In this document: positions 34,649 to 35,602 of the stretch, piece after piece
Numbering within the stretch: position 1 is the first letter of the stretch
Layout of the letters: the number at the start of each line of letters is the position of its first letter
Origin: Rickettsiales bacterium
GTDB taxonomy: Bacteria > Pseudomonadota > Alphaproteobacteria > Rickettsiales > Deianiraeaceae
Length of the DNA: 40,708 nucleotides
Direction of reading: 5' to 3'
NCBI GenBank assembly: GCA_017477855.1
Contig: JAFUUN010000062.1
Span: forward strand, 1 to 40,708
Notes under the pieces: model-generated
What the model was told of the DNA's origin: nothing
Database searches by the model: none
Seen by the model: the letters and a program-made list of their open reading frames with translations, nothing else
Translations under genes and position numbers: made by a program

Positions 34649-35602
34649 ATGAGCGGGTTTTATTTGAACTCAGAAAATCAGATTGACAATCAAAATATTC
34701 CCGATGAATTTGTTGAGATAACAACAGAGCTACGATTGCATAGAAAACAGATACGCGGACAGCTGGCAAAGATAGTTCATGAGTTTTGTAATGAGGAGCA
34801 GGATGCTGAAATTGGTGAGATCATGGAATATGCATTGATGTCAGGTGAGACATATTATCGCTCATTTTTTGCACGCATTGTCGGTGAGGTCTTGGGGTTG
34901 AGTACCGCCAAGAGTTTGTTTATTGGTGAGATCATTGAAATGATCCATCACAATGCCACCATGCAGAATAATCTCCCTGAATTTGATAACGATGACTTCC
35001 GACACTCCCGCAAAACATGCCACAGAGCATACGGTGCATCAAAAACAATTATTGCCTCCAATGCGCTTAATGCAATGATTTACCAATTCATTACAAATTG
35101 TGATAAGGTGAAAATCTCTAAATCAACACGCTGCGATTTGGTGTCGGTTGTATCAAAATACAGTGGAAAAGATGGCATTTGCGGTGGACAAATGATGAGT
35201 TTGTGCAATAAAAACAAGCCAATGTATTCCGATGAGATGACAAGATTAAAAAAGTTAAAGCAATCTGTTCTGTTGAATGCAGCGATAGATTGTTTATTTT
35301 TATTATCTGATTGTTCTGCCAAAGAGAAAAAAAACATCAAAATATTTTCAAATAATATTTGTTCTATGTTCAATATCTACGACAAAATGCAGAATAAGGA
35401 CGCGAACACGGAAGAGCTTTTGGAAAGTGCAGGCTTATTGCGAGACCAAATTGTGTCTGCGTTGAATGTATTTGATAAACGTGCAGAAAAAATGATTACA
35501 TTTGCAAGATATTACTTCTTCTGCCTGCAAAAACAGAGCTATAAAGATGCATCTAACATTGAAATTGTGAAGAGTGATGCAGAAACAGCATCCGCAAATT
35601 AA
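34649..35602 (+). CDS. Polyprenyl (FPP/GGPP) synthase-fold protein with degenerate Asp-rich motifs; probably non-catalytic or neofunctionalised
   Basis: Collinear with E. coli IspA as I recall it. [49 protein letters not shown] aligns to [59 protein letters not shown] to [21 protein letters not shown] to FQVQDDILDVV. FARM DDxxxxD becomes NNxxxxD, SARM DDILD becomes DKMQN, and GGKRLRP becomes SGETYYRS. Confidence 0.7.
   Translation: [317 protein letters not shown]

Follow-up and report, generated by a model that had tools for sequence, protein, structure and literature searches.

A probable pseudoenzyme derived from IspA in a rumen-associated genus of Rickettsiales

The ispA-like open reading frame (ORF) found on a contig of a Rickettsiales bacterium is probably the lineage's own ispA gene, turned into a pseudoenzyme. 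This conclusion draws on its homology, on its fold, on the catalytic residues that it has lost, on the selection acting on it and on the stepwise order of the losses. We estimate at roughly 60% the probability that the product, having presumably lost its activity, is an orphan pseudoenzyme kept for a non-catalytic binding role. The window (the whole stretch of 40,708 nucleotides that was analysed) is contig C41 of the assembly G000 (955 kb, 125 contigs, about 85% complete, 39% GC), and combines ordinary housekeeping genes with effector-like genes. The coordinates of the features discussed below are collected in Table 1.

Table 1. Position of the ispA-like ORF, of its altered motifs and of associated features in the window.
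Feature	Position	Strand	Description	Basis
IspA-derived pseudoenzyme ORF	34649..35602	+	317 aa; coordinates include the stop codon	PF00348, predicted model, Foldseek, dN/dS
Candidate sigma-70-like promoter	34596..34623	+	TTGACA-16 nt-TAAAAT, TG before the -10 box; 26 nt 5' of the ATG	Consensus scan 11/12, pattern match only
Clade-specific N-terminal extension, residues 1-24	34649..34720	+	IDNxNxPDEFxEI; absent from canonical IspA	Alignments
Remnant of the GGKRxRP (IPP-binding) loop, residues 65-72	34841..34864	+	SGETYYRS; Gly and Lys gone	HMMER and MAFFT alignments
Remnant of the first Asp-rich motif, residues 106-113	34964..34987	+	QNNLPEFD; replacements vary by species	Alignments
ASNAL replacing AGDAL, residues 136-140	35054..35068	+		Alignments
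Remnant of the second Asp-rich motif, residues 244-249	35378..35395	+	YDKMQN; only Y244 conserved within the clade	Alignments
Clade-specific C-terminal extension, about residues 292-317	35522..35599	+	P-[IV]-[IV]-x-x-S-D, semi-conserved	Alignments
HMG-CoA synthase and mevalonate kinase	20526..22644	+	12-14 kb upstream of the ORF; pathway context, not an operon partner	

The ORF begins with ATG and runs over 317 codons without any internal stop, which confirms the intact frame described in an earlier, sequence-only reading of this DNA. An artefact of the genetic code was ruled out, the frame being open under table 11. The product matches the polyprenyl synthetase superfamily profile PF00348 over residues 54 to 257 (E-value 5.3e-17, 62.3 bits for a cut-off of 27). 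Its closest solved relative detected with HMMER is the IspA of Escherichia coli (1RQI, E-value 6e-22), and the other top solved relatives are bacterial FPP synthases. The scores obtained with the NCBIfam model FPPsyn (115.5 bits for a cut-off of 275, thus below the FPP synthase threshold) and with PRK10581 (92.6 bits for a cut-off of 321) are both insufficient for an assignment. A structural model was computed by AlphaFold2 from an input of 16 sequences, and comprises 11 helices (pLDDT 85.5, pTM 0.84). When this model was compared with the PDB using Foldseek, all of the top 50 matches were FPPS, GGPPS or OPPS, with a probability of 1.00 and TM-scores between 0.70 and 0.91 (0.75 to 0.87 for the bacterial FPPS and GGPPS). 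The product is predicted from this model to adopt the all-helical fold of the IspA/FPPS-type prenyl synthases, as had been proposed from the sequence.

In the FPPS, the Asp-rich motifs and the basic residues ligate Mg2+, bind the diphosphates and stabilise the carbocation. The HMMER alignment to 1RQI pairs QNNLPEFD with HDDLPAMD, FNIYDKMQN with FQVQDDILD, SGETYYRS with GGKRLRP and ASNAL with AGDAL, and these blocks fall into the same register when the ORF product is aligned by MAFFT with 61 canonical IspA sequences; the four changes announced by the sequence-only reading are recovered exactly. The first motif DDxxxxD, located in helix D, is no longer recognisable, as only the final Asp of QNNLPEFD is left, and the second motif DDxxD is equally lost in YDKMQN. 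The MAFFT alignments reveal additional losses, namely RRG to RHS, KT to KQ, GQxxD to GQxxS and FQ to FN. Among the diphosphate-binding and FQ residues, K68 is replaced by Thr, R119 by His, G120 by Ser, T205 by Gln and Q242 by Asn, R71 and K204 alone being retained. A regular-expression scan detected neither DDxxD nor DDxxxxD in the ORF product and its 11 motif-less relatives, which rules out that a motif was overlooked through misalignment. With the Asp-rich motifs and the GGKR, RRG, KT and FQ residues replaced, canonical chain elongation appears very unlikely, in agreement with the earlier reading.

The comparison of 12 diverse motif-less members with the 61 canonical sequences reveals the loss of 17 positions conserved in at least 75% of the latter (G67, K68, H106, D107, D108, R119, G120, E130, G137, D184, T205, G206, F241, Q242, D245, D246 and D249). 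Across the orthologs, the first motif is represented by QNN, QSA, RIA or QSS (in full QSSLPEID in one of them) and the second by YDKMQN, YEELDE, LKCINA or LDGLIT. Replacements that are so unlike between species look like the relaxed constraint of a dead site and speak against a relocated catalytic centre. The residues of the chain pocket (S103, L104, A144, F145, F241 and Q242) are variable too. Conserved residues common to the clade of the ORF and to canonical IspA include Y61, R71, E97, P110, C124, G173, G176, G180 and Q181.

From the same comparison, about 50 positions are conserved in the motif-less clade only, and many of them are already present in the stem taxa described below. They include Y70, S72 and F74 in the former GGKR loop, T133, N138, Y244 and Q267 elsewhere in the sequence, and a charged cluster adjoining the former motif positions (K174, D175, K184, K188, D195, R199 and K202). 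Judging from the alignment of the canonical motifs and from the textbook architecture of FPPS, these new charged residues would line the rim of the former active site. Several small residues have been replaced by bulky ones (A58I, A95I, G238C and A171Y), and the median pI of the motif-less clade is 8.4, whereas it is 5.7 for canonical sequences and 5.8 for canonical sequences of the same AT-rich family. The N-terminal extension contains the conserved residues I12, D13, P18, F21, E23 and I24; in the predicted model its residues 1-13 have a low pLDDT and a helix begins at residue 19. The C-terminal extension takes the place of the basic lid that closes the C-terminus of canonical IspA, and is modelled with a pLDDT below 50 at residues 302-317.

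The phylogenetic tree was obtained by maximum likelihood from 50 sequences; the search was rapid and the branches are long, so that only the supported nodes were relied upon. The motif-less sequences are monophyletic (SH-aLRT 99), and below their clade two metagenomic stem proteins branch successively with supports of 99 and 90. This clade and its stems are nested inside an unresolved radiation of Rickettsiales-type IspA. In the stem proteins the second motif is gone, but the first one, as well as GG[KR]R and some of RRG/KT, is still there. An order-wide search with one of them (P0015) was not discriminating, as this protein resembles canonical IspA as far as the second motif. One stem gene is located divergently beside gpsA-fabH, like the orthologs of two genomes of the genus (G001 and G005), an arrangement that supports the positional orthology of the stem gene and of the motif-less orthologs. 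Since the stem taxa possess the first motif and many clade-only residues, and the second motif is missing from them, this motif disappeared and the new constraints were established before the remaining catalytic residues decayed. The decay was therefore stepwise, with the second motif lost ahead of the first.

An exhaustive HMMER search against 1.84 billion representatives (clusters at 50% identity) retrieved 11 clusters with E-values below 1e-30, followed by a gap down to the canonical IspA at about 1e-24. The members of these clusters are all intact, with a length of about 315-340 amino acids and identities down to about 30%, and neither frameshift nor stop codon was detected across more than 15 orthologous sequences spanning this range. 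The orthologs of the sister genomes, one of which is a MAG from goat rumen, are 90-91% identical to the ORF. The dN/dS ratio of the ORF, calculated by NG86 and by maximum likelihood with two close sister genomes, is comprised between 0.066 and 0.112 in three pairs (dS 0.36-0.86), to be compared with 0.075-0.10 for dus and 0.083 for tyrS in the same genomes. Among close relatives the ORF is under purifying selection, indistinguishable from that on neighbouring housekeeping genes, and the pseudogene-like evolution that the earlier reading had envisaged is not observed. At a greater depth within the genus, the identity between orthologs drops to 41%, 33% and 32%, versus 73-78% for tyrS, 69-74% for dus and 87-91% for dnaK at the same distance. 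From the low dN/dS and these identities, the product appears constrained, yet faster-evolving than housekeeping proteins. No ortholog was found in two of the eight genomes of the genus (G003 and G006, 67% and 75% complete).

Concerning the isoprenoid pathway, G000 encodes a mevalonate pathway complete to IPP, with HMG-CoA synthase and mevalonate kinase in the window (the distance of 13 kb from the ORF noted earlier is correct), HMGR on contig C61, and a second mevalonate kinase-like protein and MVD on contig C18. MiaA and MraY are also present in this genome, in which IspH and IDI-2 were not found. All eight genomes of the genus contain a gene for HMG-CoA synthase and an IDI-like gene of type 1. 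With the IDI model, the latter reaches 76-98 bits; in NCBIfam it is best matched by the IDI equivalogs, at scores slightly below their cut-off. The HMG-CoA synthase match of G003 (C20:4569-5653) is broken by four TGA, up to two TAG and up to two TAA codons, and may be a pseudogene or reflect an assembly problem in this genome of 210 contigs.

The ORF is the sole PF00348 gene of G000. The search for a canonical ispA or ispB partner, suggested by the sequence-only reading together with uppS, detected no second or catalytic PF00348 gene in the eight genomes of the genus, which are all incomplete MAGs (67-89% complete); uppS is present in seven of them and UbiA-family prenyltransferases in none. 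From these completeness figures, and assuming independence, the chance of having missed a universally present canonical synthase in all eight genomes would be about 1e-6. The sole consumer of FPP left in the genus is UppS, which uses it as primer. In the other genera of the family, PF00348 is represented by an IspA-like and an IspB-like gene, and the UbiA family by one or two genes; with one exception, these genera have no HMG-CoA synthase. The related genus represented by G017 (86% complete) encodes HMG-CoA synthase and UppS with no PF00348 gene at all, which indicates that UppS can persist in the family without a bacterial trans-synthase. The distribution is thus reciprocal: genera with canonical IspA, IspB and UbiA-family proteins are devoid of HMG-CoA synthase, and the lineages with HMG-CoA synthase (the genus of the ORF and G017) are devoid of IspB, of UbiA-family proteins and of a functional IspA. 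The acquisition of the mevalonate pathway may have coincided with the loss of quinone synthesis. The heme-copper oxidase, considered as a marker of aerobic or anaerobic genera, was uninformative, as most of the family does not have it.

In the UppS of G000 (C102:722-1423), the invariant residues are kept, among them DGNRRWA and RTGGExRLSNFLLWQ. All seven UppS of the genus, as well as that of G017, contain the sequence LYCLSxENL. In nearly all other genera of the family the corresponding sequence is (A/V/T)FSxEN(W/N/G), the exception being G011 with ALSIENW. The changed residues are those that we take to correspond to A69, F70 and W75 of the E. coli UppS, adjacent to the catalytic S71 and N74. 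LYCLSxENL is confined exactly to the lineages without a functional IspA; the UppS tree is compatible with a single origin of the change, so that this is one co-occurring event and not a replicated correlation. On the evidence of the motif, the change may correspond to an altered use of the allylic primer. A complex prediction of the ORF product with the UppS of G000 gave a score of 0.00 for a mark of 0.32, a result that speaks neither for nor against an interaction.

The scenario that we favour would have begun in the ancestor of the rumen-associated genus with the loss of the second Asp-rich motif, followed later by that of the first motif and of all the diphosphate-binding and carbocation-stabilising residues. 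In the same lineage, in which a mevalonate pathway is present, IspB and all the UbiA-family prenyltransferases would have disappeared. The protein would have kept the prenyl-synthase fold without binding the Mg2+/diphosphate unit, and a protein that cannot bind this unit would make no FPP. It would then have been retained under selection for the binding of a protein partner or of an anionic ligand, through a surface composed of the new N- and C-terminal extensions and of the rim around the old active site, which is remodelled and has become basic. The sequence-only reading had offered, as its other option, a fold repurposed for another ligand, and this option is the one that we prefer. If the sole PF00348 protein is dead, the allylic primer of UppS would be supplied by the host or by UppS itself. 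Several observations count against this explanation. One is the hole left in the pathway: a genome with a full mevalonate pathway, an IDI-1-like gene, UppS and MraY, and with no other candidate for the FPP primer, is the classic case for the only homolog still working. Another is the identity of 32-41% at depth, to be compared with 69-91% for housekeeping genes. In addition, the variable neighbourhood of the gene offers no hint of a function, and the genomes are all incomplete MAGs (67-89%).

In two other readings the protein still handles prenyl diphosphates. We consider it unlikely that undecaprenyl diphosphate is built here without any trans-prenyl synthase, the CLSxENL-type UppS priming itself from DMAPP or taking host FPP, and the dead IspA acting as a metal-independent protein that binds prenyl diphosphates and hands them on. 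If it were true, the genus would offer a natural answer to how the synthesis of the lipid II carrier starts without IspA. The UppS enzymes that have been characterised to date reportedly do not use DMAPP (PMC12345219). Somewhat more doubtful is the reading in which the ORF product remains the short-chain prenyl diphosphate synthase of the cell, providing GPP or FPP as primer for UppS by means of a non-canonical, perhaps metal-independent, site of basic residues. The selection on the ORF is strong and the new conserved Lys, Arg and Asp near the former motifs could form such a site, and the hole (mevalonate pathway, IDI-like gene, UppS and MraY, with no other PF00348 gene in the genus) is, on an overall reading, the only point in its favour. 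However, all the residues known to ligate Mg2+, to bind the diphosphates or to stabilise the carbocation are replaced; one would expect conservation of an active site that had been relocated, and the motif replacements are not conserved among orthologs, any more than the lining of the chain pocket. Moreover, G017, which has no PF00348 gene, retains UppS and HMG-CoA synthase.

The remaining readings are weaker. Export of the dead IspA as an effector, for example by a type IV system, with binding to a factor of the host (a ciliate) such as a prenyl synthase or a prenylated protein, is in our opinion distinctly improbable. The genome encodes a VirD4 coupling protein, a YopJ-like acetyltransferase and an EF-hand protein are encoded within 2-3 kb of the ORF in G000, and the gene itself is solitary, with its own promoter-like site, fast evolution at depth and disordered termini carrying short conserved motifs. 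However, the protein has neither a signal peptide nor a recognised type IV secretion signal, its effector-like neighbours are not conserved beside the ORF in other species, and its dN/dS in close relatives is as low as that of housekeeping genes, with no sign of an arms race; its descent from a bacterial IspA, very distant from eukaryotic FPPS, makes a heterodimer with a host enzyme unlikely. The sequence-only reading had proposed a regulatory or partner subunit, that is, a non-catalytic small subunit tuning the chain length or the activity of a catalytic large subunit in a heteromeric synthase. The fold is retained, and motif-less PF00348 proteins have precedents in the small subunits of plant GPPS, two of which (3KRA and 5E8L) are among the solved structures matched by HMMER. 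This proposal nevertheless fails on several counts and now seems very improbable: no catalytic PF00348 protein is encoded in G000 or in the seven other genomes of the genus, CxxxC is absent from 13 of the 14 clade members examined (the ORF product included), the gene is unlinked to the mevalonate genes, and its neighbours vary, no synthase gene being adjacent in any species. As for a functionless gene that is becoming a pseudogene and awaits deletion from a shrinking genome, the loss of the catalytic residues, the high divergence at depth, the two genomes of the genus in which no ortholog was found and the lack of the gene in G017 could all be read in this way. We find it hardly credible, since it is contradicted by the dN/dS of 0.07-0.11 with dS up to 0.86, by a frame undisrupted in more than 15 sequences and by the roughly 50 newly conserved positions of the clade, and the genomes of the genus without ortholog are merely 67% and 75% complete.

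Compared with bacterial IspA (PF00348; E. coli 1RQI/1RQJ; NF045485), the pseudoenzyme displays homology over about 200-260 residues, the same fold and the same length class, and descends from the Rickettsiales-type IspA lineage; unlike them, it lacks the Asp-rich motifs, GGKR, RRG, KT, GQxxD and FQ, possesses extra termini, and is basic instead of acidic. With the plant small subunits SSU-I/II (mint GPPS 3KRA, rice 5XN6) and the PDSS2/DLP1-type partners it shares the PF00348 fold, the lack of functional Asp-rich motifs and the selective constraint. These partners, however, need a catalytic large subunit from the same genome, which the genus of the ORF does not have, and the plant small subunits carry CxxxC interface motifs that are missing in the ORF product.

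It is customary to regard FPP synthase as the step through which all polyprenyl products of bacteria must pass, the essential carrier for peptidoglycan among them. On the basis of its gene content, the genus would represent a natural knockout of this step, in which IPP and DMAPP are made, UppS and MraY are kept, and the sole trans-synthase homolog is dead. The altered UppS and the dead IspA would constitute a defined protein pair with which to address whether cis-prenyltransferases prime themselves or use host FPP. It would also be a clean bacterial case of an orphan pseudoenzyme without catalytic partner, of which the stem lineages record the order of decay. Our search of the literature for motif-less bacterial IspA or for isoprenoid pseudoenzymes of endosymbionts returned nothing relevant. 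In Staphylococcus aureus, the double mutant of hepT and ispA remains viable and the source of the UppS primer is an open question; the viability of ispA mutants is likewise unexplained (PMC12345219). Rickettsia parkeri depends on host isoprenoids (PMC6854040). In both cases, bactoprenol can be formed in a cell that has no full isoprenoid route of its own. In R. parkeri, the early steps leading to IPP are missing, whereas the genus of the ORF possesses the early steps and lacks the FPP synthase step.

The genomic setting of the gene is variable. The orthologs are found beside tyrS/dnaK in G000, mlaA in G002 and G004, fabH in G001 and G005 and nifU/ybeY in G007, and the neighbours are unlike even between orthologs that are 90% identical. 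The sole recurrent arrangement is gpsA-fabH, which was not found beside canonical ispA in the sister genera within flanks of 1.5 kb. Synteny was therefore rejected as a functional clue. In the window, the start codon of the tyrS ORF as listed (33333-34610, minus strand) is a TTG overlapping the promoter-like site ahead of the ispA-like gene; a likelier start is an ATG about 60 nt downstream of this TTG (complement of 34547-34549).

Immediately 3' of the ORF (35603-35720) there is a GC-rich repeat (GGTGGTGC...GCACCACC), about 88 bp long and with inverted ends. Further copies are present at 7724-7811, at about 4263-4337, at 17431-17509, at 28784-28878 and at other places of the window. BLAST gave at least 150 matches over the 955 kb of G000, and dozens for every sister genome. 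The repeat forms the end of several contigs, and the breakpoints of gene order around the ispA-like gene coincide with it.

Two genes of the window encode eukaryote-directed, effector-like proteins and flank housekeeping genes. One is a homolog of the YopJ-family acetyltransferases (37656-38672, minus strand; E-value 3.5e-7), and the other is a small protein with an EF-hand and a hydrophobic tail (32363-32824, minus strand), the gene of which was not found at the corresponding place in the sister genomes. The VirD4 homolog is encoded elsewhere in G000. Two ribosomal proteins of the window are unusually long: S18 (30364-30735, plus strand) has an N-terminal extension of 66 residues ahead of the Pfam domain, and L9 (30752-31399, plus strand; 215 amino acids) continues for about 60 residues past its C-terminal domain. 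Finally, a gene adjoining parB (4487-5923, plus strand) encodes an N6/N4 DNA methylase with a fused HNH endonuclease domain.
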